This document shows, one piece after another, positions 1-35,401 of a stretch of DNA of 64,000 nucleotides (position 1 is the first letter of the stretch; the number at the start of each line of letters is the position of its first letter). The notes beneath the pieces were generated by a model. That model had not been told where the DNA came from. It worked only from the letters and a program-made list of their open reading frames with translations, and did not search any database. Source of the DNA: Cyanidioschyzon merolae (lineage: Eukaryota). The position numbers and the translations under genes were made by a program. Location: NCBI GenBank assembly GCA_000091205.1, contig AP006500.2. One strand, written 5' to 3'.

Positions 1-4
1 TGCT

Positions 5-997
5 GTGCGTGAGCGGTGCACGCATGCTGATACGCGGGAAGTGCACGGAGGCGATGCCCGCTCGAGGCAGCGCTTGTCGTCTGCTGAGCGCGCTACACGG
101 GTTCATGCTGGGGACTCCGAGGCGAATGTCCGTGATGGAGCCATATATCGGGGAACTTCGAAGCAATGGACACCTGGTTCACCGGCTGGAGCGTCTGGTC
201 GCGTTGTTGAGCGTTTCGAACTTGGCAAGGAGCCCGACAGCGATCATGTGTTGGACACTGAGCCAGAGCACGCACAGTCAAGTGCAGTTGTTGACGCACG
301 TTCCAGAGCGGTGCATGTTATGTCTGTGACGGAATTAGAATCCATGAAAGAAGCTCGGTTTCCTCGTTTGCTTGCACCGAAAATGGAACCAGAGCGATTT
401 CCATATGCGTGGTGCTCCGCAGACGAAGCAGCCATCAGGCAAATGTACGCAGCGGATGAGATCGTGCGCATGCCGCGCTCGTGCCGATACGGAGCCGCTC
501 TGGGGCCGTCATCATCGGTACTGCTGCCGTCGCAGGCACCACGGTCGGCGGTGGGGGTTCAGCGCTCGCGTGCGAGCGGCTGGTGGCAGACCCTCGTCAC
601 CGCATTCCATGCGGGTGTCCGCAACTCCACAACGCACACGAATCGTGATGATGATGATGATGGTGATGACGGTGCTTGTGCATTCGCGGGTCAGGTGGAT
701 GACGGGACGCAGTGTCCACCACCGGCCTCGAAAGCGGGTGAAGCGGGCGCGCCGGCATTACGAGGTCTTTCTGAGACTGATTTTGGCCAAATCAGCTCAG
801 AAGGAGCTCATCCAAATGCAGCGCTCCATGGCTCCATGCTTCTACACAGACCAGGGGCGTACAAAGCGACTTTCCTCAATGAGTCCAGATCCTGTTATCT
901 GCAATCTCGGACGCGAACGTATGAACGCATCCGAGCGCTGCGGAGACAGCTGCAAATGCAGCGTCAGCAGCGAACAGCTGATGCCATCAGCACCTAG
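5..997 (+). CDS. hypothetical protein; probably the 3' part of a gene starting left of the window (alternative internal ATG at 320)
   Basis: The frame is open from the window edge to TAG at 995-997. The track start is a GTG. I recognised no domain. It has an acidic run (DDDDDGDDG) and a basic coiled C-terminus. Confidence 0.3.
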   Translation: MRERCTHADTREVHGGDARSRQRLSSAERATRVHAGDSEANVRDGAIYRGTSKQWTPGSPAGASGRVVERFELGKEPDSDHVLDTEPEHAQSSAVVDARSRAVHVMSVTELESMKEARFPRLLAPKMEPERFPYAWCSADEAAIRQMYAADEIVRMPRSCRYGAALGPSSSVLLPSQAPRSAVGVQRSRASGWWQTLVTAFHAGVRNSTTHTNRDDDDDGDDGACAFAGQVDDGTQCPPPASKAGEAGAPALRGLSETDFGQISSEGAHPNAALHGSMLLHRPGAYKATFLNESRSCYLQSRTRTYERIRALRRQLQMQRQQRTADAIST

Positions 998-1910
998 AGC
1001 GTTCGACATCGCTATGTGCGTTGAGATACTTGACCTGGGACTCGCACACATGGGCACGCGTGAGCGACTCCGCGTGTCCCATAGAGATATGTATCCAAGC
1101 CGCCTCGATCCTCGAGAGGATCATCTGGTTTGCGACTCGTGTTCCTTGCCGTTCCCTTTGAGTATATACCCGCTATTCACATGTTATGCTTCGTATGCTG
1201 CGCTACAATGTTTCCCCTTTGGGTGTTCGTGGCTGCATCGATTTTCGCCATAGCGCGCCAGGGCGCAGGTGGGCGCGCGGGCTCGTTCGGAACGTCAACG
1301 AGATGCGTTTCCCAGCTTCGCGTCGCCGACAGCAGCAGTGTCCGAGCGAACGGCGCAGCTGTTACAGCATTAGCTTTGGCGTCAGTTGCTCGCTCAAGTT
1401 CATGTTTTTGAATCACTGAGTCCCCGTATGGGAGCGCCACGGGCGGCTGTCCGCATCCTGAGGACTTGCACGAGGCAACGTGCCTGCCGAGCGTCACCGA
1501 GTCTGCGTCCGTCTGGAGCATACCTAGGGCATCTGTATCCCAGAGATGGGCGTATCTCGTCGGGACCGTCAGCCGCCGGTGGTATCCGAACGATCCACTG
1601 GATGGCAACGCGAGGAGTGCGTCTCGACGACACGCAACGCTTGACGGTAGCTGCACTGCCGCACTCGGTCTCTTTCGTTGTGTGCAGCGCCCCGATTCTA
1701 CTCGGCATTGAGAACATACGCTAATCTAACGATGGCATTAGCTGGCAATGGTCATACCAAACGATGCACCCGTGCGCGGTTTCGTAGAAGCGGCCGCAAG
1801 CGAGCGATTACCGTGATGCGCTCCCGGTTCACATCGAGCGTCACATGCCTGGTAATGCGCCTGGTACCGATGATGCGTATCCGAATCGTTTCAGCGTCGG
1901 GGTCTAGATT

Positions 1911-3501
1911 GGTGTCAGCATAAAATGGAGCAGGTCCACGAATACTGGCTAGCTCTCTAAAAAATGGGCCTCTTCTCCTGGCCGTCAGCGCCAGCCACTG
2001 TGGGATTTTTCCGTGACTGCTTCTTGTTTTATGTTTCTTGTATCTGAAATGAAAAACCGCGGTCTGTCCTTTTACTCTAGATCGGTTGTCACTAGTCGAT
2101 GGATATTGAGGAACACGTCCAAGCGCCGATGTGGCCGATTCAAGCTGTTATCGACGAATATCATAGACACTCGATCGTTGTGAGCTACGCTTCACTCGCC
2201 ATTTTCATGTTATTTATACAGAGCCCCAGTGCGTCCTTCGCGGCGGTGGCGCTTAACTCTTTTCAGATGTTCCTATACGCGCACCAAACATCCGCGGGCT
2301 TCTCCTCCTTCTTCTTCGAGCACCGCCACGTGACACGGGAACGCTTGCTTCGTCCCTAACCACACGAACTTGACGGGTAGCGTGGGGTTCCTTCGATGTC
2401 TCACTCCGTTTCCGCGCCTCAGTGCTGTACCCTAGGATGACGGGCGTCGTCGTCGGCAATCTCCTCGGCGAGTGTGCTGTTCGCAGGACACGAAAGCGTA
2501 GGCTGCCCCATTCGGCTGCGGATTTGTGGAACGCGATATTGACCATGACGAAACAGTGTCTGGAAGGAAACCCGGGCCTGACGAAGCACTCGAGAGATCC
2601 AGTTCCATCTACGCTCCGTTCGTGCAGCGGATTTGTGGAACGCGATACTGACCATGACGAAACAGTGTCTGGAAGGAAACCCGGGCCTGACGAAGCACTC
2701 GAGAGATCCAGTTCCATCTACGCTCCGTTCGTGCAGCGGATTTGTGGAACGCGATATTGACCATGACGAAACAGTGCCTGGAAGGAAACCCAGGCCTGAC
2801 GAAGCACTCGAGAGATCCAGTTCCATCTACGCTCCGTTCGTGCAGCGCGGTGAAGCAGCCTCCGATAGAAGCGATCGCTGCGATAACGCAAGTCCGAGTC
2901 CAAGACACTTCTCCATGCAAACCGAAGACACGCGGGCCTCTACGAGCATACCCCGTGCAGCGTCGCACGCTGTTGTTGGCTCGCGCTCCACCGATAGCGT
3001 CAAAACGGGTAGGAATTGTTGTTCGGTCGATTTCAGCTAATGGAGGCGACAAGGTCAGTGAGCTTACGTTATGAGCTTGTACATACGACGTTCAGGGACA
3101 GCATCGACTTTTTCGTTTCCACGTCAATCCACCAGCGCCAACGCCTGCACCAACGAGTTGCTTTGAACGAGAACGATCGAAAACTTGAGCAGTGTCTGTG
3201 CTGCGAGCCTGCTATACGTCGGGCAAGGACAGGTGCGGCGGCTTGTACGCATGCATCGAATAACGATATCCGTTATTTGAGGAAGCCTTGTCTGAGGGCG
3301 TCGCGAATCGTCTCGACCCCAGTGCCGTCACGAATTCCAGCAACGACGAATTGAACGGGAGACACTGCAACAGAGACCGACCGAGACTCCTACAACTGCG
3401 TATCGGTTCGTATGCTCTTATTGCTGAACTTCAAATGTTGAGGCCGTGCTTCTAAAAAATCTTCGGAAAACTATCGAATGGTTAGAATGGAGCGAGCGGC
3501 T
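1911..3501. repeat. left arm of large inverted repeat (1591 bp)
   Basis: The reverse complement of 4442-5814 matches base for base, with about 1 mismatch per 200 bp in the stretches I compared. The outer end is ggtgtcagcataaaatggagc. The inner end is ggagcgagcggct. Confidence 0.9.
2518..2846. repeat. 109-bp tandem repeat, 3 copies, inside the left IR arm
   Basis: gatttgtggaacgcgata recurs at 2521, 2630 and 2739, giving a 109-bp period. Units differ by 1-3 nt. This explains the three near-identical overlapping ORFs in the track. Confidence 0.9.
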
Positions 3502-3529
3502 CAATGCTCTCTATTACGCCGAAACGACT

Positions 3530-4201
3530 CTAAAAGACGCACGTATTAGCTGCTGCTGTACCATCGGCCGAGGCAAAGCGCGTCCGAAGTTGTTCCCATA
3601 CTGCCGCTCTTTCCGATGAGACATCACCAACCGGACTGAGAAACATACTCAGTACCACCTCCTCGCCTGCCTTCTCGTGCCCGAGCAAGCGAATGATGTA
3701 TGTCGGTGTCGAGGGATCACCCCGACTGACGCCCTGTTCAAAACGCGCCGCACGAACGCCGCTGAGAAGAATGTGTAGATCCATGTTGATCGATAAGTCG
3801 ACGACGTTGGCGTAGAGGCCTCGGCGTGGCACCTCAGCGTAGAAGAGTTTCTCGAGGGTTGCGGTCGACTCAAGCACAACCGCCGCGTTCGTCGCGATAA
3901 AACGCAATTCGCCTAACTCCTTGCATGCTTCCAAAAACTCCACAAGACGAGGAAACTTTCCTGCAGCTTGGTCAACCGTCAACCGTCCGGGAGCTTGCGT
4001 TGCCATGCGCACAACGCTTCCCGTGCGCGCACGCCTTCGAACAGGGCGTGCGGCAGCCAGCGACGCGCTGTTCCAGGGCAGCAAACGCGTCCCATGAACG
4101 AGATCACGGTACACTGCCGCACAATGTAGTGCAGTATGTGTGCACCCACTAGATCTTGTGCGTTCTTCAAGCCTCAGCCTATTCAAGCCAGTGACAAACA
4201 T
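3530..4201 (-). CDS. small protein with ChuX/HutX-like (haem-utilisation/haem-binding fold) C-terminal domain and a transit-peptide-like N-terminus
   Basis: ATG at 4199-4201. The 223-aa ORF is the only ORF in the unique spacer of the IR. The pattern ELGELRFIATNAAVVLESTATLE...GLYANVV...DLHILLSGV...TPTYIIRLLG...VVLSMFLSP resembles my recollection of ChuX/HutX. The function call is weak. Confidence 0.45.
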   Translation of the reverse strand: MFVTGLNRLRLEERTRSSGCTHTALHCAAVYRDLVHGTRLLPWNSASLAAARPVRRRARTGSVVRMATQAPGRLTVDQAAGKFPRLVEFLEACKELGELRFIATNAAVVLESTATLEKLFYAEVPRRGLYANVVDLSINMDLHILLSGVRAARFEQGVSRGDPSTPTYIIRLLGHEKAGEEVVLSMFLSPVGDVSSERAAVWEQLRTRFASADGTAAANTCVF

Positions 4202-4441
4202 CGCTGGAGTTGATCGCAGTCCAAATGGAGATCAGCGAGTGCTGCAATCGATGTCAGCGCCGCTCGCGTTCCATCTTCGCAGGAGCCGTAGAGGAAATCG
4301 TACATGAATGTATATCTAGGGACAGTAATGGACATGAGCGCCTTCGCCCGATGCCGAGTCTCCAGCAGGGCCGGAGGGTCCGTGACGCACCGTCACTGTG
4401 ACGCGCACGTGGAACGCTAGACACACTCAGATGGAAGATGC

Positions 4442-5814
4442 AGCCGCTCGCTCCATTCTAACCATTCGATAGTTTTCCGAAGATTTTTTAGAAGCACGGC
4501 CTCAACATTTGAAGTTCAGCAATAAGAGCATACGAACCGATACGCAGTTGTAGGAGTCTCGGTCGGTCTCTGTTGCAGTGTCTCCCGTTCAATTCGTCGT
4601 TGCTGGAATTCGTGACGGCACTGGGGTCGAGACGATTCGCGACGCCCTCAGACAAGGCTTCCTCAAATAACGGATATCGTTATTCGATGCATGCGTACAA
4701 GCCGCCGCACCTGTCCTTGCCCGACGTATAGCAGGCTCGCAGCACAGACACTGCTCAAGTTTTCGATCGTTCTCGTTCAAAGCAACTCGTTGGTGCAGGC
4801 GTTGGCGCTGGTGGATTGACGTGGAAACGAAAAAGTCGATGCTGTCCCTGAACGTCATATGTACAAGCTCATGACGTAAGCTCACTGACCTAGTCGCCTC
4901 CATTAGCTGAAATCGACCGAACAACAATTCCTACGCGTTTTGACGCTATCGGTGGAGCGCGAGCCAGCAACAGCGTGCGACGCTGCACGGGGTATGCTCG
5001 TAGAGGCCCGCGTGTCTTCGGTTTGCATGGAGAAGTGTCTTGGACTCGGACTTGCGTTCTCGCAGCGATCGCTTCTATCGGAGGCTGCTTCACCGCGCTG
5101 CACGAACGGAGCGTAGATGGAACTGGATCTCTCGAGTGCTTCGTCAGGCCCGGGTTTCCTTCCAGACACTGTTTCGTCATGGTCAATATCGCGTTCTACA
5201 AATCCGCAGCCGAATGGGGCAGCCTACGCTTTCGTGTCCTGCGAACAGCACACTCGCCGAGGAGATTGCCGACGACGACGCCCGTCATCCTAGGGTACAG
5301 CACTGAGGCGCGGAAACGGAGTGAGACATCGAAGGAACCCCACGCTACCCGTCAAGGGCGTGTGGTTAGGGACGAAGCAAGCGTTCCCGTGTCACGTGGC
5401 GGTGCTCGAAGAAGAAGGAGGAGAAGCCCGCGGATGTTTGGTGCGCGTATAGGAACATCTGAAAAGAGTTAAGCGCCACCGCCGCGAAGGACGCACTGCG
5501 GCTCTGTATAAATAACATGAAAATGGCGAGTGAAGCGTAGCTCACAACGATCGAGTGTCTATGATATTCGTCGATAACAGCTTGAATCGGCCACATCGGC
5601 GCTTGGACGTGTTCCCCAATATCCATCGACTAGTGACAACCGATCTAGAGTAAAAGGACAGACCGCGGTTTTTCATTTCAGATACAAGAAACATAAAACA
5701 AGAAGCAGTCACGGAAAAATCCCACAGTGGCTGGCGCTGACGGCCAGGAGAAGAGGCCCATTTTTTAGAGAGCTAGCCAGTATTCGTGGACCTGCTCCAT
5801 TTTATGCTGACACC
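4442..5814. repeat. right arm of large inverted repeat (1373 bp; single copy of the 109-bp unit at about 5097-5208)
   Basis: It is the reverse complement of 1911-3501 minus two 109-bp units (218 bp, which is exactly the length difference). ORFs 5366-5626(-) and 4589-4927(-) mirror 2099-2359(+) and 3016-3354(+), each with 2 aa changes. Confidence 0.9.
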
Positions 5815-6049
5815 GGTGTAACACGAGACACTTGCCACTGTCGCGCTTCTATCCGCGTGCATGTACGTATGCTCGAGTTACCCGCCCCGTTGCCGGCGAC
5901 GTAATGAACAAGCTCACTTGGCGCACACCTAAAGACTCCCAAGCATCACGCTTTGACAGGCTCTATTATACCACACTCTTTGAAAGAAACAGCGCCACAC
6001 ACAGTATCGACGAGATATCTCGTTGCTATGACCTGCGCGGCGAATACAG

Positions 6050-8740
6050 TCACAAATGCGGATGCTCTGATGCAGCATTGCGACGCTTGTCTCGCGATTG
6101 TTGAGTCGCTTCGGGAACTTGGGTCAACGATACGGGCGCCTCGTACATACTCTGCGCAGCGCCGGTTGGCAGGAGTCCTGCTGACTCCGCTGCGAGCGCA
6201 TCGAGCGACTCTGCCTCTGACGAAGGCTGAAGCGCACCTGACGCTGCTGCGATGAGTTCCTGAAACAACGCATCCAGGCTGTTTTCAGCCAGCATGCGGG
6301 GTCGTAGTTGTTCGACGCGCTCCGAGGACACCAGTCCGGCAGTGAGCAGTGCATCGAAGACAGACATATGTAACGTCGAGTCCACTGGGGCATCGGGCGA
6401 CGTCTGCTCAGGCGAAGAGATCGCAATAAGTGGCTCGCTGGCGTCCTCGTGCTTGTCAGCGGGTGCTGCAGCCACTGGAGCTGTCGTCGTTGCTGATGCC
6501 GTTGTTTCACCGAAAAACAGAGCTAACGAGTCCGCTGCGGGTACCGGATTCGTTGCCACTGGCGCTTGCAGCTCGGTGCTTGTGTCTTGGTGCTTTTCAG
6601 CAGCCTGGTGCTTCGATGCCTCGGTTGACGGTACCAAAGGCAGCGACACATGTAAAAGGTTCGCATTTTCCGGCAGACATGAGGAAAACGTCGCTCCCGC
6701 GGAAGTGCACGCACTCCATGCGCAGAGCAGACAGCCGTTCGTCCATGCACTGGGCACAGCGAATGCTACCGCATCTCGGTTTCTCAGTGCATCTATGGCG
6801 TCTGTGCGAACGTCATCCACTATTGAGGAGGTTCTCAGTGGGGCACACTGCGGATGTGCTGCGGCGGCTTCCGCAGTACCTGCTCGAGGCGTTGGGTCGG
6901 TGTCAATGAGGGTCGTACTCTGCGCTACGCGCGCTTCCATGGTATCCATTACGCTCTCTGGACGAACCGAAATCTTATCGAGCGATTGTGCGCACTCCAC
7001 CGCGTAGCTCAGAACATCTACATCGTCATCTTCGAGGCCAGCGACCAGCAGGCTATTGAGTGCGCGCCAAGCTCGATCCGTGGATGTCCTTCGCGCCGCG
7101 AGCGTTCGAGCAAGACGTAGCAACTCGAGGCGCACTGGTGCAGCCAAGAGCAATCGATGCTGCTGCTGTTGCTGCTGCTGCTGCATCCATCTTCGCAGCA
7201 CCTCGTCGGCGACAGTCCCAATATGATCGATCATCGTGCCTACGATCCAGAGAAAACGACTTTGTGTCGGCGAGTCGGACTCGATCCATGCCGCATTGAG
7301 CACAATCTCTTTTAAGAGATTTTCTGCTTGACTTATGCGTTCCCGAGGCGTCGTCCGTAGCGCTCCCACTGTCATGCGCAGCAGCAGAAGGCCAACAGCA
7401 CCATAGACTGACGGCGATACGACGCTTCGGCTGCGCCAAATGTCGATGAGTTGCGGAATAGCGGCAGCACTGCTTACCGGATGCACTGCTGCCATTAAAG
7501 CCAACGCACGTGCTGCCATAATAGCAAGCTCTTCGCCACGGCACTTCAACAGCGGCACTAGCCGATCCATAATCGTGATGCACAGCGTCTCCTCGAATTC
7601 GACAAGTTTCACCAGGATGCCCAGCTGATGGCGATACACTGCCGGTTCATCAGTGCCGATCGTCGGCACAAACAGGGGCGCGTACCTTGTCAAACACGCT
7701 GGTTCACGCCACGCGAGCACGTGCAGCATTCGCAGGGCCAACACTTTCAGGCCGCTCTCGTGATCCAGCGCGTAGCGAAGCAGCGTTCGCACCACCGTCT
7801 CCGTGACGTCGTTATCGCTGGAGCGCCTCAAATGGTACAGCGTTAGCGCACCGCTCACAGCGACCGCTGCCGACAGGGACTCTACAGCTTTCCTGGCGAG
7901 TCGGTCGACGGCTTGCACAAAGCGGGTAAGCTCTTCACCGCAGAGTGTCTCTGTCATTCGCTCGGGCCGCGTTGTAGTACGCAGTAGGACGTAGCGCAGC
8001 AGCTGATGCAGTGCTATCGGGAGCAGGTTCCCCGGAATCGTCTGGTACTCTTCATCTAGTCGCTCGACCAGCGACACGGGAATGTTGAGCATTGCATCTC
8101 GATCTAGCATGCCCAGTGCTGCAGCAGTTGCAACCAGTACGGGTGCTTCCCGGTCATTTAACAACAACTGCCACAGAGGTGCCGTCAACGCCGAAGCAAT
8201 CTGCTCAACAGGCAGCTGGTGGAGGCTTTGCGCAGGCTCCGCACCGTCGGGCTCGTTCCACGTTAGCACTGGTGGGATACTCAGGGCTGCGGTGAGTCGC
8301 ACTTGCGGATGACGGTCCCGCACACCGCGGTGAATCGCCAACCACATAACCTGGCGTAGAGCGGGAACACGTAGCGAAGTCAGTAGGCGGAGCGCCTGAC
8401 TCCGCACCCAAGGGTCATTGTGCTGCAGGTCCTTAAACAACGCGTTAACCGCCAAGAGGACCAAATGCGGTTCGTCGTCCGCATGCTGCTGCAGGAATAT
8501 GCACACCAGTCGTTTCAGTTCATAGTCTGCTTGCAGCAGATTGCTCACCACGGCGGGTAGCAACTTGGCTACGGGCTGGCCCTGAACGCTGAGCGCTAGC
8601 ACTCTCTTCAGCGCTTCCCTGCGAACCTGTGCGTTGCCCTGTTCAAGCTGGAGTCGTAAAAGTGCCCAGTCTGTGTTCGCATCGTCCAAGTACGAGGCGT
8701 CTGTCCAGTTGCCCGCTAACTGAGACGCCAGCGTTGTCAT
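6050..8740 (-). CDS. adaptor-protein complex beta subunit, AP-3 beta-like (adaptin N-terminal HEAT/ARM domain)
   Basis: ELKRLVCIFLQQHADDEPHLVLLAVNALFKDLQHNDPWVRSQALRLLTSLRVPALRQVMWLAIHRGVRDRHPQVRLTAA fits the beta-adaptin N-terminal signature. The first ATG is at 8738-8740 (the track ORF begins at GTG 8782). TGA stop at 6050-6052. The C-terminal third is low complexity. Confidence 0.75.
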   Translation of the reverse strand: MTTLASQLAGNWTDASYLDDANTDWALLRLQLEQGNAQVRREALKRVLALSVQGQPVAKLLPAVVSNLLQADYELKRLVCIFLQQHADDEPHLVLLAVNALFKDLQHNDPWVRSQALRLLTSLRVPALRQVMWLAIHRGVRDRHPQVRLTAALSIPPVLTWNEPDGAEPAQSLHQLPVEQIASALTAPLWQLLLNDREAPVLVATAAALGMLDRDAMLNIPVSLVERLDEEYQTIPGNLLPIALHQLLRYVLLRTTTRPERMTETLCGEELTRFVQAVDRLARKAVESLSAAVAVSGALTLYHLRRSSDNDVTETVVRTLLRYALDHESGLKVLALRMLHVLAWREPACLTRYAPLFVPTIGTDEPAVYRHQLGILVKLVEFEETLCITIMDRLVPLLKCRGEELAIMAARALALMAAVHPVSSAAAIPQLIDIWRSRSVVSPSVYGAVGLLLLRMTVGALRTTPRERISQAENLLKEIVLNAAWIESDSPTQSRFLWIVGTMIDHIGTVADEVLRRWMQQQQQQQQHRLLLAAPVRLELLRLARTLAARRTSTDRAWRALNSLLVAGLEDDDVDVLSYAVECAQSLDKISVRPESVMDTMEARVAQSTTLIDTDPTPRAGTAEAAAAHPQCAPLRTSSIVDDVRTDAIDALRNRDAVAFAVPSAWTNGCLLCAWSACTSAGATFSSCLPENANLLHVSLPLVPSTEASKHQAAEKHQDTSTELQAPVATNPVPAADSLALFFGETTASATTTAPVAAAPADKHEDASEPLIAISSPEQTSPDAPVDSTLHMSVFDALLTAGLVSSERVEQLRPRMLAENSLDALFQELIAAASGALQPSSEAESLDALAAESAGLLPTGAAQSMYEAPVSLTQVPEATQQSRDKRRNAASEHPHL

Positions 8741-9350
8741 CGCCGAGGCGGTACAGCCGCGAACTCTCCCCTGGAGCACCACACAGCCGCGTTAGAGGAC
8801 GAGTATTGGCCGTTGCAGTGTACGGCCTGGGCAACAGTGACCTACAGTGCAGAAAGAATCTTGTCCGAAGACGCAGCGAGAAAATCTAGAAACGTACTGG
8901 TCTGAGCTTGCTGAGAAACAAACGCAACTCGAACGAGATGCGTCCAGTAGCACTCGCGCTACCAGTTTTCGGGCAACGGAACGCTGCACCTCCGGAGCCG
9001 CTTCCAGGTTCTACCAGCAACACCAACACCTTGTAAATTTAGACCTGTGCTCGTCCGCAGCGTCAAGGCACGAATCCCCGACTGCCAGGCTTGGGTCCCC
9101 GGTGTTACGGCACGGAGGCGAGGTCGTCCACCGGTGTCTCCTGGGAAATCCTGTCTCACGCTAGCCCATACGCCCTTGTCAGTGTAAAAACGGGAACAAG
9201 TCGACGAATACCGGCGCAGACACTCATGGATGTGTCGCTTATCGATGTCATCAACACGTGTGTGCGCAAGCTTTTTCTGTGAATGCCTCCTTTTCCTCCC
9301 ATACATCTCCGGCTTTCAACACGGTAGTATGCTTTCTTTCCCATGTTTAC

Positions 9351-10475
9351 GGTTGTCAGCAGTCGAGGAATGTTGATGGCATCTTTAAACTACCGATTTC
9401 TCCGTTTCCGGTGAAGGTCTGCGTATTTCATGTACAGGCCAAAATTGCGATCTATATTTCGCTTACCACATTCATCTTCGTTGTACACAGCCTCGGTGGG
9501 CTTTTCTGGCGATGACTATTTGCTATACACAGGCACGCTGATCTATCCATCCAGCTGAGGCGCTCCTTGGAACGCTGCCCCCATAGCGTATGAAGCCAAG
9601 CTTCATCGCCCGGTACACACTCTTGATGGGTTCAGAGAACTATTCTGGACGCCCTATTCGTTTTCCATGCCAGACGCGGCACCTCACCACCAGAGGCTTC
9701 CTCATGGGATTATCCTGTCGGCGAGTGCGCTGCCAGCTGCACATGCCAGAACAGGCTGTTCCGTTCGATCGAGCACTTGTGGAACGAGATTTTCTTCTTG
9801 ACAAATCAAGTACTGGAAGAAAAATTCCAGCAGGGCATCGTTTTGATCGATATCACTCCGTCTACGCCCTCTGGGTGCAAAGCGGTGACGCACGCGCCAC
9901 TGTTCATCGATCGCTGCGATGCCTCAAGACCGAGTCCAGGACCCGTGTTCATGCAAAAAAGAGAAACGAGCATCTCTCGGAGCGTACCCAGCGCCAGGTG
10001 ACATGCTCCTGTCGATTGCTGTTTCGTCGAGAGCTAAAAAGAGAAGTGGATTCCCCTCTCAACGGAATCGATTATTTGACGTGACAAGTTCAGAGAGCTC
10101 TTGGTATGAGCTCGTGAACCAGCCGTCATGGTTGCTTTGGGACAGAAAAATTTCAAGATTTGAAGAATACGTGATCTAGGCATTCAACTGGTTCATAAAG
10201 ACGAAGCGTGCAGTCTTCCATGTATGCATTGGATGGATGATATCGGTTATTGTCACGAACCCGTGTTCCAGGGCGTCGTGAATCCTCTTGATCCCGGTGA
10301 CGTAACGAATTCCAGTGGGAAACCGCCAGAGAAGCCATTCCTGGAAACACAACCAGCAATCCTTGATCCCCTAGTGATGCACTGCGAATATCGCTGCTGA
10401 TCATCTAAAAACATACTTCGGAAGACTAGTTCGAAATGCAAGAACAAAGCGAGCAGTTCAGAGCTCCATTTTATG
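9351..10475 (+). repeat. third, diverged copy of the IR-arm sequence family (core homology 9700-10475)
   Basis: Collinear blocks are shared with 2440-3501. Examples are tcggcgagtg(t/c)gctg, ttgtggaacg, gatcgctgcgat..ccgagtcca and agggcgtcg(c/t)gaatc.tct.ga.ccc.gtg..cgt.acgaattccag at 10270-10320 vs 3294-3343. The end block is tctaaaaa.at..ttcggaa.act...gagcgagc.g. Identity is roughly 70-75% by eye. The 5' limit is uncertain. Confidence 0.55.
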
Positions 10476-10639
10476 TTCATACGGGTGCTGCGATCTGCCG
10501 TCGCTGCTCCTTGTTTGCTGCGAGTCATATCCTACCTGCATTTCTGTTTGCGTTCATCAACGTACTTCCAGCGTCCAAGTGACGGGGTTGCGTCTGCCTC
10601 GTGATAGGGCTAGAGTGCTTGCCTCTGGCAAGCCCGTTC

Positions 10640-11449
10640 ATGGGATCGGCAGCACCTTTGTCGCGGATCGCGAGACTCCTCGAACGGGACGCAGCTACGC
10701 TGGCGTGGAGCGAACTTCACGAAGCGCACCAGGTACTGCTGCGCTGCACGCTGCGCTCGACTGACGGACAGGCACTCTGGTTGCTGTCGCAGTTCTATGA
10801 ACGCGGGTTTCACGTGCAGTGGCAGCTGCGCCGCAAGACTCGGCCTCGTGGAGGTGGTCTCATCGCTCGCTGGTGGTCCTCAGCGCGATATCGGTGGCAC
10901 TCGCTGTTCACGGAGCCGGTGCTCGCGCTTGATCGCTTCCTCGCCGACAGATACCGCTATGCAGCGGCTCGTGCTGACGTGCTTCCGGCCCAACTAGCCC
11001 TGGTAGAGGAGCTTCGGCGCAACGGTGACGATGCGGATCACGAGCTCGCCTATGCGCTCCTGAAGCGCATGGTACGGTTGATGGCAGGACAGCGCTCAGC
11101 GGGCATGAACGCTGCTGTGCTCCCGAAAATAGGTCTTGTCTGTCTAACCCGTGGTGCGTTCAATGACGCGCTAACGTTCCTGGAGCAATGGTATGAAAAT
11201 GCAGCTCCTCGTGAGGGACACGCAGACACCATAGCGGTGCTGGGCGTGCTCTACGCTCGCCGGTGGCTGCACGCAACTGAAGCAGCGCGTACGGATCACG
11301 ACCTAATGCAAGCGCAACGATATCTGACAGAGGCTGCGGAGAACGGAAGCGTACTGGCGCAGTCATGGATTGTCGCACTGGAAGAGCACTGGAAACATCC
11401 CAGGTCTGGAGAGGAGCGAACGGCCTCCATCCAAGCGGTACACATCTGA
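10640..11449 (+). CDS. hypothetical protein, possibly Sel1/TPR-like helical repeats
   Basis: 269-aa ORF from the first ATG at 10640 (track start is GTG 10601). Repeated A..W...AA..G motifs (YLTEAAENGSVLAQSWIV). No confident family assignment. Confidence 0.45.
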   Translation: MGSAAPLSRIARLLERDAATLAWSELHEAHQVLLRCTLRSTDGQALWLLSQFYERGFHVQWQLRRKTRPRGGGLIARWWSSARYRWHSLFTEPVLALDRFLADRYRYAAARADVLPAQLALVEELRRNGDDADHELAYALLKRMVRLMAGQRSAGMNAAVLPKIGLVCLTRGAFNDALTFLEQWYENAAPREGHADTIAVLGVLYARRWLHATEAARTDHDLMQAQRYLTEAAENGSVLAQSWIVALEEHWKHPRSGEERTASIQAVHI

Positions 11450-19168: not shown

Positions 19169-19450
19169 TGCATGCACGAGCTGAGCGTTTCTTGATCTTG
19201 GCAATCTCCTCTCCTATATATACACACTTTCATCCAGTGTGCATGCACGAGCTGAGCGTTTCTTGATCTTGGCAATCTGCTCTCCTATATATACACACTT
19301 TCATCCAGTGTGCATGCACGAGCTGAGCGATTCTTGATCTTGGCAATCTGCTCTCCTATATATACACACTTTCATCCAGTGTGCATGCACGAGCTGAGCG
19401 TTTCTTGATCTTGGCAATCTTCTCTCCTATATATACACACTTTCATCCAG
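19169..19450. repeat. 71-bp tandem repeat, about 4 copies, each containing tatatatacacac
   Basis: catgcacgagctgagcg recurs at 19171, 19242, 19313 and 19384. Units differ by 1-2 nt. The array ends 136 bp upstream of ATG 19586. Confidence 0.9.
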
Positions 19451-19585
19451 CATCGACGTGAGTTGTACCAGGGCGCGGCGGGATTCGGCGTTGCCTCGCG
19501 AGCATCGCACTATCCGAAGATCGGCACTCGAGCTGCGCGTCCGAGGTGCTCCACAGCAGCTTCTAAGGTTCTGGCACAGCCTACG

Positions 19586-20728
19586 ATGCGTATGGAACAG
19601 CCAGCAGCGTTTCTGAGTGGCAAACTACAACCCTTGTGCCTAGATCGCAAGTTCCAGTTGCGCGTGAGCGGGTCACGGCAACAGTTTCGGGGCCGCCGCC
19701 GACCCATTCTCGTCGCCCGGGTCGGGATCGGCGTCATCGGTGCAGGCCGCATAGGACAGGTACATGCAGCAACGATAGCTCGTCTGATGAATGCAGAGCT
19801 ACGAGGTATTGCTGATCCAATTGAAGCAGCTGGGCGTAAGGTGGCCGAGAGTTTCCAGACAGCGTACTTTCCAGACTATCGTACGCTGCTAGAGGACCCC
19901 GATGTACAGGGTGTCGTCATCGGCTCGCCAACGCCGTTTCACGCGGAACAAATGATAGCTGCAGCCGAAGCCGGCAAGCATATATTTTGTGAAAAGCCTA
20001 TCAGCAACGATCTCGCGACGATCGACCGTTGTTTAGAGGTGGTACGCACCAGCGGCGTCAAACTCCTGGTGGGGTTCCAGCGGCGCTTCGATAGTAACTT
20101 TAGCTACGTACGTGACCAGATTGAGCGTGGCACCATTGGGCAAGTGCGTATGTTTCACATCCATTCAAGAGATCCGGCGCCACCTCCGGCGGAATACTTG
20201 GCGAAAAGCGGAGGTATTTTCCTCGACATGTGTTCCCATGATTACGATATGGCGCGTTTTGTGACGGGCCAGGAAATCGAGGAGGTTTACGTGGTTGGCA
20301 AGGCCTTCGATCCCGAGGCACAGGCCGCAAATGATCTCGACACCCACATAACGGTACTGCGGATGTCGGGCGGGGTCATGGGCACCATCGACAACTCTCG
20401 TCGTTGCGCATACGGCTACGACCAGCGTATCGAGGTGTTTGGCTCCGACGGTTCGTTAATCGGTCAAAACAAGAGCAAGCACTCCGTAGTAGCCGCCGGT
20501 CAAGATGGGTATCATCATGGACGACCTTTTGATTTCTTTATGGATCGCTATCTGGAGGCGTACGGGAACATCATGACCGCATTTGTGCAGATGATCGAGC
20601 GCGGCACAGACCCCCCTGTCTCGGGGTTAGACGGTCGCGCGCCGGTGCTCGCTGCGCTGGCCGCAGCCCGAAGTGTCAAGGAGAATCGACCAGTGAAACT
20701 CAGCGAAGTCGATATACGCATGCGCTAG
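19586..20728 (+). CDS. Gfo/Idh/MocA-family NAD(P)-dependent oxidoreductase (myo-inositol 2-dehydrogenase-like)
   Basis: Rossmann motif IGVIGAGRIGQVHA, conserved FCEKPIS, then LLVGFQRRFD and GGIFLDMCSHDYDM. The first ATG is at 19586 (track start is TTG 19463). N-terminal extension of about 45 aa. Confidence 0.85.
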   Translation: MRMEQPAAFLSGKLQPLCLDRKFQLRVSGSRQQFRGRRRPILVARVGIGVIGAGRIGQVHAATIARLMNAELRGIADPIEAAGRKVAESFQTAYFPDYRTLLEDPDVQGVVIGSPTPFHAEQMIAAAEAGKHIFCEKPISNDLATIDRCLEVVRTSGVKLLVGFQRRFDSNFSYVRDQIERGTIGQVRMFHIHSRDPAPPPAEYLAKSGGIFLDMCSHDYDMARFVTGQEIEEVYVVGKAFDPEAQAANDLDTHITVLRMSGGVMGTIDNSRRCAYGYDQRIEVFGSDGSLIGQNKSKHSVVAAGQDGYHHGRPFDFFMDRYLEAYGNIMTAFVQMIERGTDPPVSGLDGRAPVLAALAAARSVKENRPVKLSEVDIRMR

Positions 20729-23700
20729 GAATGAATGCAATCGCCCCTAAACCAGTATCAGGTTCAGAACTGGAACGCCGAACTGTTCGCTCTGTTGCTT
20801 CCTTGCAGTGCATTCCGAAATTTTGCTTGGACGTACAGACTCGACATTCGATGGGCAGCAATGGGAGCCTTTGGGCGCACACACAGTTTTAGGATTCTTC
20901 GTCGTCATTTCCGAGTGGCACCTTCGACGCTTTGCTGCTGCCATTGGTTGCACGTGACCTTTACCAAGGTGACTCGCCACGTTATTCACCAAGAATTCGT
21001 CATATAACCCGTATCACTATCCAGTTCAATCGCACAAATTTCGACACTTCTCCTTTCGAAAAGTTGGGTATGCTCCAATCAAATACTCCTGAACCTTTAG
21101 GTGTCTATCTTACAGAGCAGCTCGTGGGCGCTGCCATTCGCACCGCTGGATTGATGGGGAAAAACACCCGAACGTCTTCCTTTTGACGCCTTGTGCACAT
21201 GTACATGCTGAAAGTTCACCGAAATTCTCATATTAGATACTTGATTCGTTTCGAAGGCCAAATTATTTTTTGCGGCAAGTAACGAAGCTGCATTCGGCAG
21301 CAACATGATATCTCTCACGGGATATGCTCCCAGAGGCTCCCGTCTATTTTGTTTGCAGGTAAAAGGGTCTTGGATTCAGAACTGATTCATCGCTGTGAAT
21401 GCTTCCAGCGGAGCATGCTTTATCGCTTGGCATGGAGCAGACGTCGAGGGATCGAAATTACGCAAGCGAACCTTCACCCTGGACTCCCTTCCGTTTCCTG
21501 GTTCATCGTGGGCAACATCACATTCCGGGGATTCTATCGAATGAAATGTTGTCCGCTTGTGTTTGCAGCGAACAGAGTACTCGCTGACGGGGTCGCCCCG
21601 AAGGAGCCCATAGCTGTAGGTTACGGTAGCGAGCGCGCAATCGGGTAAGAGAGTCTGTGAAAGCCCTCTGCATCCGTCCAGGGCATCTACGGGGCGATGA
21701 GGCAACCATTACGCGCCACAGGACGGCCCTAGGAGGAGGTCATTTGGTTTGCATATGGGAAGATTCGACCTCAACCATACGTGACCGCTGCAGAGGGCGC
21801 ACAGCAGCTGGATAAAATGAAACTGAAAGTGGCACGCGAAGGGTACACTCCAACTACCGCCTGTGCATGAAATGCGGCACTAGGAGCCGGAAGCTGCGAA
21901 ACTGAGACTTGAAGGCGCCAATCAGCCTCCTTTGACTGTTGAGAACAGGGCTGGGGCGAACGGAGAGACCGGCGTATTGAAAGCGGGAGATACGAGAGAG
22001 TAAATGAAGCAGTCGCTAAACAAACGCGCAAAGCTTGTTGTTGATGTCAGTGGAACGAGAACCGAACTTGAGCGTGGATGCCCCTGTTAGATGACCTCTC
22101 CTGTTTAGTTATACCGCGATGCCAAACAAAGACACGCCGAAACTTTGGTGACGAGAAATCCCGTAAGAAGACTGCGAATGTTTTGATGGAGTATTGGTAC
22201 GATGGCACATACTAATGTCTCTCGGGGACGCCATTGGATCCAAACTTTGGGGATCCTAGGCTCATCTAAGACGCCACTATCAGAGTAGGTCGTGCGGAAC
22301 GTGGTCGCGGTGCAAAGTACGAGCGCCATACGGCATGTACTCTGGGGAGCGTAGAGCGACGCGGTTCGAGCTCATGGACACGAGGGGTCTTCGAGATGAT
22401 TGTGCCATCATGTCATCTAACAAGATCCACAGTATATGCAGATTTGCGGATCATTACGCTTTCTGCTGGAATCCTGCGGCATTTCAGACCGCATACGGGT
22501 ATTCATATCCGTGAACAAGCTGCAAAGTCGATGAAAGTGGTTGCCGCAATGGGACTCCCAGCTCATAGACGCTCCTCGATCCGAGAGAAATGCCCATATA
22601 TCTCGTAGTTCGATACCCGATTGGCTGTTGGCGCAAATACGAGGTTGCTCACGTACCGTCTAGCGTTCGATCGTGCGTCCTCATGAGGATTTTATGCTGG
22701 GAAAGCCAGCACAAGCACCGCTCAGGCGAACCAGCCTGAGTTGGGCGCTCTATCCTCCGTCATTTTCATTTCTATTCAATTTGAGTGGATTCGCGGAGGC
22801 CTGCCAACAGACCTCTCAAGCTGCAAGCGGGCACGTTACACGTTGTGCGCCTCCACCACTGAGTCTCTCGGACACAGGCACTGTTGCGTTATTCAGGTAT
22901 GTGGGCATCGATACAAGCTTCGCAATACAGCGGCATGGACGTGCAACTGCGCCAAACGACGGCGCGGTAGCATTCCGCAAGCCCTGTTCAGCAGAGCGAC
23001 CAGCGCTAGGCTGTTCGCGCATGAGACCTGGCGCTTTCCTAAACCCCGAGACCTTCATGAACGTCATCCGTGGACAAGACGAGGTGCGCATCAATCGAAT
23101 AAATGTCGAGCCAGACGTATCCTGCGCCCGCAAAAACTGGATACACGGGCATCAATGCCTGGAAGGCTCCATGTGCGAGACTCCCGCTATTTGACGTCCG
23201 GTATCTCCGCTACCTCCGATTCTACGACGAATGCTGCGCGGTCAGTCTACAGGAAGTTTTTAACTCGGGCCCCGGATCCGATATAGACTGGACGCGAACC
23301 ATGTCAAATGCCTCGCCTGGAAAATGCCTGAGTGTCACCTTCGTCAAGTACCACGGACCGAGCGAGGCGCGTTTGCAAATGGTGAACTGGTTGCGAGTCC
23401 TTAACAGCTCCACCGATGACTAGCTAATCTGTCAACACTGGATACGCCTCAACCGCGCTCTTCGTTCCGAATTCTGATGAGCTTCGGCATACGTCAAGGC
23501 GATCAGGCAAAGCGTCTTCATCGGCTAAGGAACTGTACTCCAGAGCGGGGGCTCGCAATCGCTCGTTGCCCAACAGTCCAGCACGCGAACCTCAGAGGAT
23601 CAGCATTCCATGTAGAATTCAGAATGCTGGAGGCGGCGCGTAGATGAAGACTAGGCTAGATATAAGCACTCACATCCACAAACAGATGGAAACGTTTGCG

Positions 23701-26019: not shown

Positions 26020-28263
26020 GTGTGTTCTTTTTCGAAAATAAAAAAGGAAAGTTCTGGACGAAGAAGTGGAGGATCCTGGAGGCACGGTGTCGCCAGGTGG
26101 CGAAAAGAACGAAAAATAGTGCCGAGCAAAGATGAACAGGAGAAGAAGAAGAAGAAGCGAGAGCCAGACCTCAACGGCTGCAAGAAAGGCGACAGCATGA
26201 CGAGATGATAGTGAACGCCTGCCTTCTTGGATGTATCAAGGATCCGTACGAGCAGAAGATGCGAGAGACCACCAGAAGCCGTGTCGATTCCTACTCCAGG
26301 AGCGTGCGTAACACTTCTTTTTGGACTGAAGCATACGGTGAAGGAGATATACGATGACCTTACCGACACGAAAACAGTCGAGGTTCCGGAAGCGTTTTTT
26401 TTAACAAGACCCTCAGCCGCCACTTGATGCTTGGCACAGGGGGACGTCGAGGGAAAATGAGCGCATGTGCGTCCTCCATGAAAAATACCCCTACTAGGGT
26501 CTCAAAGGTACTCGTTACAGGGGTGACTCGCGTATTTTCGAATACAGGGCAAAAAAGTATCTCACGAACCTGAACAACCATATGATCATGAAGCTCGAAC
26601 GTTTCATGACACGCTCCATCGTTGCGCGCTACCCGGGCCTCTCTCGCAAAGGGATACGGGCCATCATCAATGGCGTCAGGAACGATAGTAAGAATGAACA
26701 GGAGATCGAATTCCTCGACGAGAAGACATCACACAGGAGAACGAATGAAGCTTCTGCAATCCGTACGGCAATTCAAGAGCACCGTCCGGTCTCGGAGCTG
26801 GTCAATCCAGCAGGAAATGTATCAGGTATGGAAAAAGAAAAGCAAAGATGTTATCCCCTAATCCTGCGCTATTTCGTGTGTTTGGACCGCGAACTCGATC
26901 CCAAGGCCAATATGGAGCTGGGTGTGGAACAAAATGTAGAGTCAGAGAAACGGAAGGGTATCCTAACGGGTAAGCGCTTTAGCGTTGTTGCGTTATGCAT
27001 CACCAAGTTCCATTTTGTAACAATCGACTCCAGAGTCCTCAACGGCATCATGAAGGAGGTCTGTCTGGAGTTCGATGTAAGGAAGATAGAGTTCACCAGT
27101 GAAAACCGGGAGACGTACTGGAAGAATATCTTCAATTTCAAACGTCTCAATACGTGCAAGCAAAAGGTATTCACTGGCATCATCGAAACCGATGGAGTAG
27201 CCATGTGTGTACACTCTCGGCGCTTGAAGGCAGATCGTCCAGTTCCGTCCTCGACTGCGCCCGTGGCGAAGCATGAAGAAAACAAGGAGGCTGGCCTTAC
27301 AACGCAGGAGGTACAGGAGAACGATTTTGTTGTTGGCACGGACCCTGGGAACACGAATATCGTAACCATCGCAGTACCCAAGCGTGCGGAAGATGATATC
27401 GACGGCAACTTACGTCAGAAGGACATCCGTCTTTGAAAGCTCACGACAGCTACATCTTACCGAGAATCAGGAAAACTGAATGCAAGGAAAAGAAATGAGA
27501 CGTGGAATGCAGGAGTGAAAGAGCACAAGGCAGCGATCAGCCAGGTGACGAGCCGAGGAGCGGACTTTGAAGCTTTTCGAGAGTTCATGAAAGTCCGCGC
27601 TGCTCTTGACGAGCCGCTGTCGAAAGAATCTACAAAGCCCCGGTGGGCTCGTCTGCTTAGAATCTTGTACTTTGGGAAGCAGCACGCATTTGCCAACTTC
27701 TTCAATGAGTTGAGCGCTCTCAAAGAGGACAAAATTCAGAGACTCGTGGTGGTATACGGAGCAGGGCATTGGATGACACGGAAAGGTAGCACACCAGCTC
27801 CATCGACACGAGCGTATAAGGAGTGCACACTGTGCTTCGTCATGATGTCGATAGATGGGTTCCGAACGTCGTATACATCCACCATGAGCTAGGGTGTGTA
27901 CTTGAGAGTGTCGAGATGGAAAAGTGCCAGCAGAGCACTGAGGATGTAGCAAACTACGGAGCGCTGACAGAGCACCTAACGGCATGGAGGGTGCGAGTTC
28001 GAGGTCTACTTCCGTTGGTGAGTACAACCAATGCCAAGAAACATATGAAATTCGTGAACCGAGACTTCAATGCCGCCAACAGTATAAGCAGATAGGCGGT
28101 GCTGGAGAAGAGGCCCCCAGAGTTGACCAGAGCCAACTTTCTGGGGCAACCTCTGCAGATGGCGCTGTACGAGAAGAAGCTGAAGCCAGTAGTAAATGGC
28201 CGGTCCAAAAACCCTGGGAGAATTCTGCACGCTGGCGTATATACATCAACGCTATCGGCTTGA
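26020..28263 (+). pseudogene. TnpB-like / Fanzor-type RuvC nuclease, copy 1, near full length but disabled
   Basis: Ordered motifs are [16 protein letters not shown] (Asp 27341-27343), QRLVVVYGAGHW..KG.TPAP and SIDGFRTSYT (Gly 27857-27859 where copies 2 and 3 have Glu). They are followed by KFVNRDFNAANSI (Asp 28063-28065). Lesions are TAG 26495-26497, a frame change at the T-run near 26395-26405, TGA 27437-27439, a +2 nt insertion at 27878-27879 and TAG 28093-28095. The 5' limit is uncertain. Confidence 0.75.
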
Positions 28264-34370: not shown

Positions 34371-35400
34371 CTAGACAAGACGTCTCCAAGTGACGTGCAG
34401 ACGCCATCCGATCTTTCTCGACCGGCCACCTACGACTACTGCTCCCAACTTCTTCTCATATAGTTCGACTTTTGGAGGTTGTTCCACAAAGTTCTCCCGT
34501 GTCAACTCTGGAGGTCTCGTCTCTATCACCGCACATCTCCTTATATTGGTAGCGGCATTAAGGTCTCGGTTCACAAACTCCATACGTTTCTTGCAATCAT
34601 TGGTTGTACGTACTCATGCGAGTAGCCCTCGAAGTCTCGCTCTCCTTTCCATTTGCTCCTCCGTCAGCGGTCCATACTTTTTTATATCTTCAGGGCTCCG
34701 CTGACACTTTTCCATCTCCACTGTCTGAAGTGTACACCCCTGTTCATGGTGTGTATACGAGGTTCGGAACTCATCTACAGGTATCGTAACGAAACGCCGT
34801 GCGCCCTCCTTGTACGTTCTTGTCGTTGGAGCTGGCGTAGTCCCTTTTTGGGTCTTCCATCGCCTTGCTCCGTACGCTACGACGAGCCTCTGATTTCCAT
34901 CCTCCTTCAGGTCACTCAACTGATTGAAAAAATTCGCGAACGCCCGCTGCTCCCCACAATACAAATTCATTCGCAAACGAGCCCGCCGGGGCTTGGTATA
35001 CTCCTCCCACAGCGCATCCCAATGGGCAACGCGAACTTTCATGAATTTCCGAAAAGCTGCAAAGTCCGCGCCTCGTCTAGTCACCTCGCTCAAAGCTTCC
35101 AGGTGCTCTTTCATTCCTGAGTTCCAAGTCTCGATTTTCTTCCTCGCATTCATTATACCGGATTCTCGATAGTATCTTGCTCTCGAGAGCCTCAAAAGAC
35201 GCATGTCTTTCTGACGTAAGTTACCATCAGTCCCATCTTCCGCACACTTTGGTACAGAGATGGTTATGATGCTCGTATTCCCAGGGTCCGCGCCAACGAC
35301 AAAGTCGTTATCCTGCACCTCCTGCATCGCAGGATCCGCATCATTCTCATCTACATCCTTCGCCAGGGGCGAAGCCGAGGACGGACCAGGAAGCGGGCCC
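34371..35400 (-). pseudogene. TnpB-like / Fanzor-type RuvC nuclease, copy 2; the N-terminal half is missing and there is one in-frame TGA
   Basis: DFVVGADPGNTSIITI (Asp 35286-35288), QRLVVAYGARRW, PVDEFRTSYTHHEQGC (Glu 34770-34772) and EFVNRDLNAATNIRR (Asp 34563-34565). ORFs 34614-35327 and 34371-34583 are in the same frame, separated only by TGA 34614-34616. Homology to copy 1 runs upstream to about 35400 (GPLPGPSSASPLAK vs [12 protein letters not shown]) and then stops. Confidence 0.75.
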
Positions 35401-35401
35401 G

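Follow-up and report, generated by a model that had tools for sequence, protein, structure and literature searches.

How can two copies of a dead transposon remain almost identical to each other when their nearby sister copies have diverged to about 55% identity? The question is raised by a 64-kb window of chromosome 18 of Cyanidioschyzon merolae 10D (the window being the whole stretch of DNA that was analyzed), in which a long inverted repeat at positions 1911-5814 encloses a single small gene related to ChuX/HutX or HemS. As documented below, each arm of this repeat is one unit of a dispersed family of IS630/Tc1-mariner-type elements, and we consider it probable, at roughly three chances in four, that two old and independent insertions around the gene were homogenized by gene conversion from arm to arm. 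Our literature searches returned no account of this inverted repeat or of any IS630/mariner family in C. merolae.

Geometry and authenticity of the inverted repeat

Global alignment of the left arm (1911-3501, 1591 nt) with the reverse complement of the right arm (4442-5814, 1373 nt) revealed 11 mismatches in 1373 aligned nucleotides (0.8%) and a single gap of 218 nt. The near-perfect inverted repeat noted in a preliminary description of this DNA is therefore real, although its mismatch rate is 0.8% rather than the 0.5% given there. A repeat finder reported the structure as two blocks, each 99% complementary (2733-3501 with 4442-5210, 769 nt; 1911-2629 with 5096-5814, 719 nt), with 940 nt between the arms. 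The account of the spacer (3502-4441) was also borne out: its single small gene is the open reading frame (ORF) 3530-4201 on the minus strand, its stop codon lying 28 nt from the left arm and its ATG 240 nt from the right arm. The 218-nt gap represents two additional units of a 109-nt tandem repeat in the left arm, where Tandem Repeats Finder (TRF) counted 3.1 copies at 2511-2847, versus one copy in the right arm. Thus, the earlier statement that the arms are partly built of tandem subrepeats holds for the left arm (337 of 1591 nt) but not for the right, which has one unit only. In arms assembled from metagenomes (loci L001-L006), the number of units was one or two; the unit behaves as a local minisatellite within a transposase relic, its copies varying from one to three across arms and strains. 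The features concerned are:

1911 to 3501, no strand: left arm, zone of about 99% identity (repeat finder and global alignment).
4442 to 5814, no strand: right arm, zone of about 99% identity (repeat finder and global alignment).
2511 to 2847, no strand: 109-nt tandem array of 3.1 copies, inside the transposase relic in the region of the second catalytic D (...FVMVNIAFHKS...), from TRF, alignment and ORF translations.

The 10D genome has been finished telomere to telomere and gap-free (PMC1955436). The structure recurs in independent metagenome contigs, which stem from strains about 99% identical to 10D and have the same junction boundaries as the window: three contigs contain arm, spacer and arm in succession (L001, L007 and L015), and others join a flank, an arm and the spacer (L002-L006 and L018-L020). 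Rfam (E-values up to 1) and tRNA scans of positions 1-10000 produced no matches, and the arms therefore show no sign of being RNA genes. A centromere or low-GC origin was also considered for the arms and dropped, as the part of the window that is lowest in GC is not the arms.

The arms belong to a dispersed family of dead transposons

Each arm corresponds to one unit of a dispersed, non-coding family of about 1.4 kb, of which the window holds five further solo copies, all of them intergenic. With one arm as the query, nhmmer retrieved 9178-10456, 20785-22106, 44816-45866, 55891-57195 and 59518-60694 with E-values of 1e-51 to 1e-90; four of the five extend from about model positions 4-43 to 1239-1371 of 1373, and the copy at 44816-45866 begins at model position 293. 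Sensitive self-comparison of the window likewise showed collinear homologues of the arm, at 57-62% identity. Pairwise, the solo copies are 52-58% identical to one another and to the arm, in a star-like pattern. With their ends adjusted, they are:

9178 to 10487, minus strand: solo copy between the adaptin gene and the next gene, with the inner terminal inverted repeat (TIR) GTATGAACATAAAATGGAGC.
20760 to 22118, plus strand: solo copy (self-comparison, nhmmer and pairwise identity).
44803 to 45910, minus strand: solo copy with truncated outer end (nhmmer and pairwise identity).
55876 to 57225, minus strand: solo copy (nhmmer and pairwise identity).
59518 to 60840, minus strand: solo copy (nhmmer and pairwise identity).

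It is to be noted that the last two flank the gene at 57453-59240 as direct repeats, in contrast to the homogenized inverted pair.

Coding capacity was not evident in any single copy. Tests on the family copies showed no three-base periodicity and no frame bias, and tblastx matches occurred in all frames of both strands. A Pfam search of the six longest ORFs of the arms returned nothing but one weak match to DDE_3, which belongs to the following feature:

2609 to 3052, minus strand: longest transposase-relic ORF of the left arm, 147 amino acids, which alone matches DDE_3 weakly (E 0.056) and aligns with other decayed copies.

Since single ORFs of the arms gave nothing convincing in Pfam, classification required a consensus of the family. 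The majority consensus, in reverse frame 1 (i.e., read from the spacer side outward), contains ...FVAIDETAF...FIMDNIAFHKS... and matched Pfam DDE_3 with 32.4 bits (E 9.5e-8; the gathering cut-off is 28.6 bits) and the NCBIfam IS630-family transposase NF033545 with an E-value of 1.4e-10 over profile positions 19-238 of 299. Of the catalytic residues, the first two are visible in the relic through their motifs DE... and ...MDN...H; the DDE_3 match ends at about position 101 of 146, what may be a remnant YS.E..N..E is found in a different frame, and the consensus is frameshifted, so that the catalytic spacing cannot be measured on it. A profile constructed from decayed ORF fragments only, including the 147-residue ORF of the left arm, retrieved 352 cluster representatives from public data clustered at 50% identity, among them intact proteins of 304-324 amino acids with DDE_3 scores of up to 102 bits and helix-turn-helix domains. 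When the consensus was used in a word-indexed protein search, only short decayed ORFs were found; the intact proteins came from the exhaustive profile search. All seven copies in the window are dead, having no open frame and being about 33% diverged from the consensus. Overall, the arms are almost certainly dead elements of the IS630/Tc1-mariner (ITm) type, of a subfamily that is not assignable from the frameshifted consensus.

The ends of the elements agree with this classification in motif, register and flanking dinucleotide. Copies share TA, five nucleotides and GT[GAT]TCAG-CATAAAATGGAGC at the outer end, and the reverse complement at the inner end, the TIRs being about 30 nt long. In the left element, the outer and inner TIRs match at 18 of 30 positions without the TA and at 20 of 34 with it, in the predicted register. 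When the left outer TIR was scanned across the window, 11 of 127,940 30-mers reached 18 matches out of 30, and these included the outer ends of both arms, the left inner end at 3530 (minus strand) and the inner end of a solo copy at 10487 (minus strand). The latter reads GTATGAACATAAAATGGAGC and the outer end of the arm GTGTCAGCATAAAATGGAGC, both having been recovered by this blind scan. Both arms (1905-6 and 3531-2; 4418-9 and 5819-20) and most solo copies have a TA immediately beyond their inferred termini, a dinucleotide that is weak evidence by itself. The two elements thus delimited are:

1905 to 1906, no strand: target-site TA at the outer end of the left element; TA, five nucleotides and GTGTCAG recur at the ends of family copies.
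1907 to 3530, minus strand (transposase sense): left element from TA to TA, 1624 nt (1406 nt once the two extra 109-nt units are subtracted); the solo-copy nhmmer model aligns to 1904-3523, and TIRs are present.
3502 to 3530, no strand: inner TIR remnant of the left element, outside the identity zone; it matches the outer TIR in the predicted register, and the nhmmer alignment extends into it.
4418 to 4419, no strand: TA at the inner end of the right element (end alignment).
4420 to 4441, no strand: putative inner TIR remnant of the right element, outside the identity zone and shortened by a deletion of about 6 nt; from nhmmer and end alignment, and weaker than the left one.
4420 to 5818, plus strand (transposase sense): right element, 1399 nt, with TA at 5819-5820; the solo-copy nhmmer model aligns to 5835-4417.

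These ends also clarify two features of the junctions that had been described before. A search for microhomology or a target-site duplication at the boundaries of the identity zone found none, because these boundaries are not the ends of the elements; the reported lack of a target-site duplication is correct there, but a few nucleotides further out each arm is a TA-flanked element. Similarly, the small palindrome caccggtg at the right junction exists, and is in fact 10 nt long (ACACC/GGTGT), but rather than a signature of the junction it is the TIR terminus of the right element, TA followed by CACCGGTGTCAG...

The enclosed gene is resident at an ancestral locus

The enclosed gene and its native upstream region are:

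3530 to 4201, minus strand: ChuX/HutX- or HemS-like gene, BAM82634.1 ('hypothetical protein, conserved'), from ORF, Pfam, structure match and orthologues.
4202 to 4417, no strand: probable native upstream region of the gene, 216 nt from the ATG to the insertion site of the right element, as deduced from the element boundaries.

The product of 223 amino acids scored 23.3 bits against Pfam ChuX_HutX, slightly below the cut-off of 25 bits, and its closest solved structure is PDB 3fm2, an uncharacterized HemS-related protein (E 2e-15). Two relatives were available for the comparison that the preliminary description had called for, namely Cyanidiococcus yangmingshanensis (L011) and a Joint Genome Institute (JGI) contig (L012), the latter being the closer. 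Both retain the arrangement adaptin -> ChuX-like <- 650-aa gene <- ABC gene, with the relative orientation seen in the window. No inverted repeat was found at either orthologous locus, nor did the arms have a blastn DNA match or an nhmmer family copy there. The gene is thus in the same place and orientation, and both elements are absent, in the two relatives. Since the gene order and orientation are the same without the elements, the gene is a resident and was not carried in; the elements were added afterwards in the lineage of C. merolae, and the orientation of the gene in the window is the ancestral one.

Intergenic DNA of the window species cannot be aligned with that of the two relatives even in control regions, so the empty sites can be read base by base only at the short junction around the stop codon. 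There, the orthologues end in an identical ...CVF* and TAG, the position of the stop codon being conserved in both. In the window, the stop codon TAG occupies 3530-3532; its TA (3531-3532) is the flanking TA of the left element, and the G of the present stop codon (3530) is the first base of that element. Accordingly reconstructed, the empty site ...TTTTA/GACC... resembles ...TTCTA/GACC... of C. yangmingshanensis. With the left element inserted at this TA, transposon sequence must now supply the 3' untranslated region of the gene and its polyadenylation signal. The intergenic region that hosts the solo copy 9178-10487 is also short in the outgroups, at only 163-281 bp.

The zone of identity is nested within older elements

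If the arms are elements of this family, their mutual identity can be compared with that of their sisters: the arms are 99.2% identical to each other, versus 52-58% among sister copies. Nonetheless, the arm is 68.8% identical to a leave-one-out consensus of the family, and the solo copies are 64-67% identical to it; being as far from the consensus as the solo copies, the sequence of the arm is old. Furthermore, the identity stops short of the element ends. In both arms, the alignment of a model built from the solo copies only runs on past the identity boundaries, by 7-21 nt at the outer and by 22-25 nt at the inner ones, and the conservation of the solo copies reaches background level once the inner boundary has been passed by about 10-15 nt. 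The outermost four nucleotides differ between the arms (GATT versus CACC), and the inner TIRs (3502-3530 versus 4420-4441) are about half identical and require gaps; these terminal differences were present in every metagenome contig compared. Within the zone, the outermost 198 nt and the innermost 415 nt of the arms are free of mismatches, all 11 lying in between (P of about 0.0015 if placement were uniform). An arbitrary segmental duplication was rejected as a source of the second arm, as it would neither coincide with the family unit nor leave a second, diverged TIR in register.

One cluster of mismatches deserves separate mention. Three substitutions within 36 nt, at 3051, 3070 and 3086, are private to the left arm of 10D, the right arm and all metagenome arms sharing the other bases; a multi-base mutation or a short tract of ectopic conversion may account for the cluster.

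Strain variants are common to both arms

If conversion acts between the arms, alleles that arose in one strain should appear in both of its arms. Alleles were counted within 124 nt of a unique junction, where they can be phased by a read or k-mer. In three contigs (L001, L007 and L015), a variant at position 3450 was found at both the S3'-linked arm end (the gene 3'-end side) and the S5'-linked arm end (the gene 5'-end side) of the same contig, and 10D has the other base in both arms. At the opposite end, variants at 1946, 1951, 1982 and 2012 occur in left-flank-linked arms (all four in L004; 1982 and 2012 only in L003) and also in right-flank-linked arms (L005 and L018), with the reference bases in both arms of 10D and other strains. 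C. merolae performs homologous recombination and gene conversion in its nucleus (PMC3764038). We are fairly confident that gene conversion is what keeps the arms alike, and the suggestion in the preliminary description that the repeat is a substrate for conversion has gained direct support from these strain comparisons.

As a separate observation, the outer-arm alleles of contig L018 are those of one strain group and its inner-arm allele is that of another; the contig is either a natural recombinant or an assembly chimera of strains that occur together.

Orientation of the spacer

The same description proposed that the spacer could invert. Both orientations do occur in the metagenome contigs, and this evidence is ambiguous, for a reason taken up below. 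Ten contigs span an arm. Five are window-like, joining the gene 3' end, an arm and the left flank or the gene 5' end, an arm and the right flank (L002, L003, L004, L015 and L019), and five are inverted, joining the left flank, an arm and the gene 5' end or the gene 3' end, an arm and the right flank (L001, L005, L006, L018 and L020). Three contigs end 121-160 nt into an arm. The arm ends are identical over at least 198-600 nt, and over 400-600 nt within a strain group. An attempt to prove inversion by phasing the arm variants of the metagenomes was abandoned because of this identity of 400-600 nt, and because at least one contig is strain-chimeric.

In one strain group (L003, L004 and L005), an arm-specific variant at 2367/2368 is the other way round between the left-flank and right-flank arms than in 10D, and the variant at 2226 keeps its arm. 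A flip followed by a flip-back, with the two crossovers at different points, would be expected to leave such a footprint; as short reads do not phase safely over 456 nt, it is to be taken as a hint. We regard the arguments for and against an actual inversion of the spacer as evenly balanced. A flip should be nearly neutral for expression of the gene, since the inner TIR remnants and the stop codon move with the gene and the two sides are identical for 1.4 kb.

Proposed history of the locus and its alternatives

In the history that we favor, two IS630/Tc1-mariner-type copies of about 1.4 kb would have inserted independently, long ago, at TA sites on either side of the gene: one in the TA of its stop codon, and the other, in the opposite orientation, 216 nt upstream of its ATG. 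Both would then have died, their transposase frames broken. As inverted copies only 0.9 kb apart, they would have undergone repeated intrachromosomal gene conversion, by which their interiors (1373 nt) would be held at about 99% identity. The last few to about 29 nt at each element end would have fallen outside the converted domain and diverged, while the solo copies would have drifted to about 55% identity. Crossing-over between the arms could, in addition, invert the 940-bp gene cassette. Of this history, membership in the family, the transposase relic, the TIRs and TA, the nesting of the identity zone, the absence of the elements from the relatives and the joint variation of both arms among strains have been shown; unbroken conversion since the insertions, and flipping as an actual event, are inferred. 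An extended version is doubtful, namely that the cassette flips in living populations, that conversion has preserved an invertible structure while the sisters decayed to about 55%, and that the family fills at least a tenth of a genome cited at 0.7% transposons.

Several observations weigh against the history of old insertions and conversion. The inner TIR of the right element appears weak, and aligns only if a deletion of about 6 nt is allowed. For concerted evolution, the evidence consists of about five sites close to the junctions, in short-read metagenome contigs of which at least one (L018) mixes strain haplotypes. The even split of spacer orientations fits an equilibrium flip-flop and, equally, an arbitrary choice of path by the assembler, because the assembly graph is identical for both isomers and short-read assemblers cannot phase arms of 1.4 kb. 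Two other family copies, arranged as direct repeats 2.3 kb apart, are only 56% identical, and proximity alone is therefore no guarantee of homogenization. Continuous conversion also needs insertions that were nearly identical at the start, which is assumed here. Finally, the search for young copies in 10D covers the 64-kb window, the rest of its genome lying outside it.

Among the alternatives, all of them improbable, the one that survives best is a single recent copying of the interior of one old element over the other, through a long conversion tract or a replication template switch and without long-term concerted evolution. It would also account for a zone of identity nested between diverged ends, and the boundaries of this zone lie in the best-conserved motifs, i.e., the GTGTCAG core of the TIR and the GAGCGAGC block, which could serve as microhomology. 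However, a tract would have to cover almost the entire 1.4-kb unit by chance, reaching close to both of its ends, and to our knowledge ordinary homologous recombination does not operate between sequences of about 55% identity. Moreover, since conversion after the strain split is needed anyway, the process appears to be recurrent.

Marginally less likely are two recent insertions of a still-active, possibly non-autonomous family member, for example by local hopping, in which case the 99% identity would simply reflect youth. The arms are almost exactly one family unit and both are TA-flanked, the protein collection contains intact transposases of this family, and Tc1/mariner elements are known to reinsert nearby. 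Young copies, however, should be identical through their TIRs, whereas here the outermost four nucleotides and the inner TIRs of 22-29 nt differ at the family level around an interior that is 99.2% identical. In its distance from the family consensus, the arm also resembles the old solo copies, its transposase frame is broken, and a metagenome scan with the outer 24-mer of the arm found only this locus and no other young copy. Strain-specific alleles common to both arms would, in any event, require conversion.

It is very unlikely that the whole 3.9-kb unit is a mobile element, Foldback-like or composite, that brought in the ChuX-like gene. The arrangement does look like a bacterial composite transposon, with two inverted IS630-type elements around a prokaryotic-type gene, and the closest solved structure of the gene product is the HemS-related 3fm2. 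Nonetheless, the gene is syntenic, in the same orientation and with its stop codon in place, in two relatives that are devoid of the elements; the inner ends have their own TA and TIRs, as two separate insertions predict; the family otherwise occurs as solo copies; and no second copy of the composite was found. The likeness to a Foldback element drawn in the preliminary description must be given up for similar reasons, the arms being separate IS630/Tc1-mariner-type members, each with its own TIRs and TA, of a mostly solo family around a gene at its ancestral locus. Lastly, an assembly artefact, such as the collapsed or chimeric contig feared in that description, has practically no chance: misassembly is classically caused by inverted repeats, and breaks within the arms occur in metagenome contigs, but the source is the gap-free, telomere-to-telomere 10D sequence, at least 15 independent contigs from different samples reproduce both junction types with the same boundaries, and the arms differ at 11 sites and in repeat number.

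Other repeats in the window

A second, older palindrome was encountered at 34500-36200, a 1.7-kb segment that matches its own reverse complement from end to end (nhmmer E 6e-288). Complementarity between its arms is 73-79%, and their innermost segments are separated by only 47 nt. The arm recurs a third time at 27234-28127, and this repeat does not belong to the ITm family. The ORFs 34614-35327 (minus strand) and 26582-27436 (plus strand), which overlap copies of this older palindrome, had no Pfam match. A 71-nt tandem repeat of four copies occupies 19169-19450, just upstream of the ORF 19463-20728. In the JGI contig, positions 11010-11293 comprise about 2.5 copies of an intergenic 112-nt tandem repeat that looks unrelated to the 71-nt repeat.

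Significance

The five solo copies and the two arms together amount to about 9.5 kb, or 14.8% of the window. The genome paper lists 0.7% transposons, eight 'transposase-related elements' and, separately, a 253-copy interspersed element of 3.2 kb (PMC1955436); the comparison of 14.8% with 0.7% is that of one window, maybe an atypical one, with a genome, and the family may overlap the categories reported there. Were the window typical, decayed transposons overlooked by protein-similarity searches would account for much of the intergenic DNA in this 'simplest' eukaryotic genome. The locus would also be a compact natural case of concerted evolution, in which dead, neutral copies are near-identical purely by virtue of proximity and orientation, with five nearby sister copies serving as internal controls for the divergence to be expected. 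As C. merolae is genetically tractable and recombination-proficient, the rates of conversion and inversion at this locus would be directly measurable.

Comparison with known systems

The locus can finally be placed among the systems that it resembles. It shares with the ITm superfamily (Pfam DDE_3, NF033545) arms and solo copies of about 1.4 kb, flanking TA, TIRs of about 30 nt and a DDE_3/IS630-type transposase, here a nonfunctional relic; it differs in that the seven copies in the window are dead, and in that the third catalytic residue and the D-to-D/E spacing are unreadable. Foldback (FB) elements also have long inverted arms, and a short tandem array is present in one arm here. In FB elements, however, the paired arms are largely tandem subrepeats and the whole unit is flanked by a target-site duplication, whereas at this locus the relic units of the family are mostly single, a three-copy array occupies 337 of 1591 nt in one arm against a single unit in the other, no direct repeat is common to the outer ends beyond a non-discriminating TA (1905-6 and 5819-20), and a conserved host gene is in the center. 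Composite transposons such as Tn10 and Tn5 are matched in having two inverted elements, here IS630-type, around one small gene; in contrast, the 'cargo' here is a resident gene, which L011 and L012, lacking the elements, carry at the same syntenic place and in the same orientation; the elements themselves are dead, and nothing indicates that the unit ever moved.

The palindromes of the primate Y chromosome and the large inverted repeat of plastids, with its flip-flop isomers, are kept identical by arm-to-arm gene conversion. They share with the present locus near-identical old arms, strain-specific changes in both arms, sharp identity boundaries and a unique spacer that is able to invert; here, the arms are indeed more alike than their age predicts, and lineage-specific alleles are common to both in short-read contigs. 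This locus is far smaller, with arms of 1.4 kb and a spacer of 0.9 kb; its arms are dead transposons and not gene-bearing duplications, nothing points to selection maintaining them, and coexistence of isomers is here a possibility. Thus, concerted evolution between arms is well known as a phenomenon; in this instance, it is built from dead transposons.

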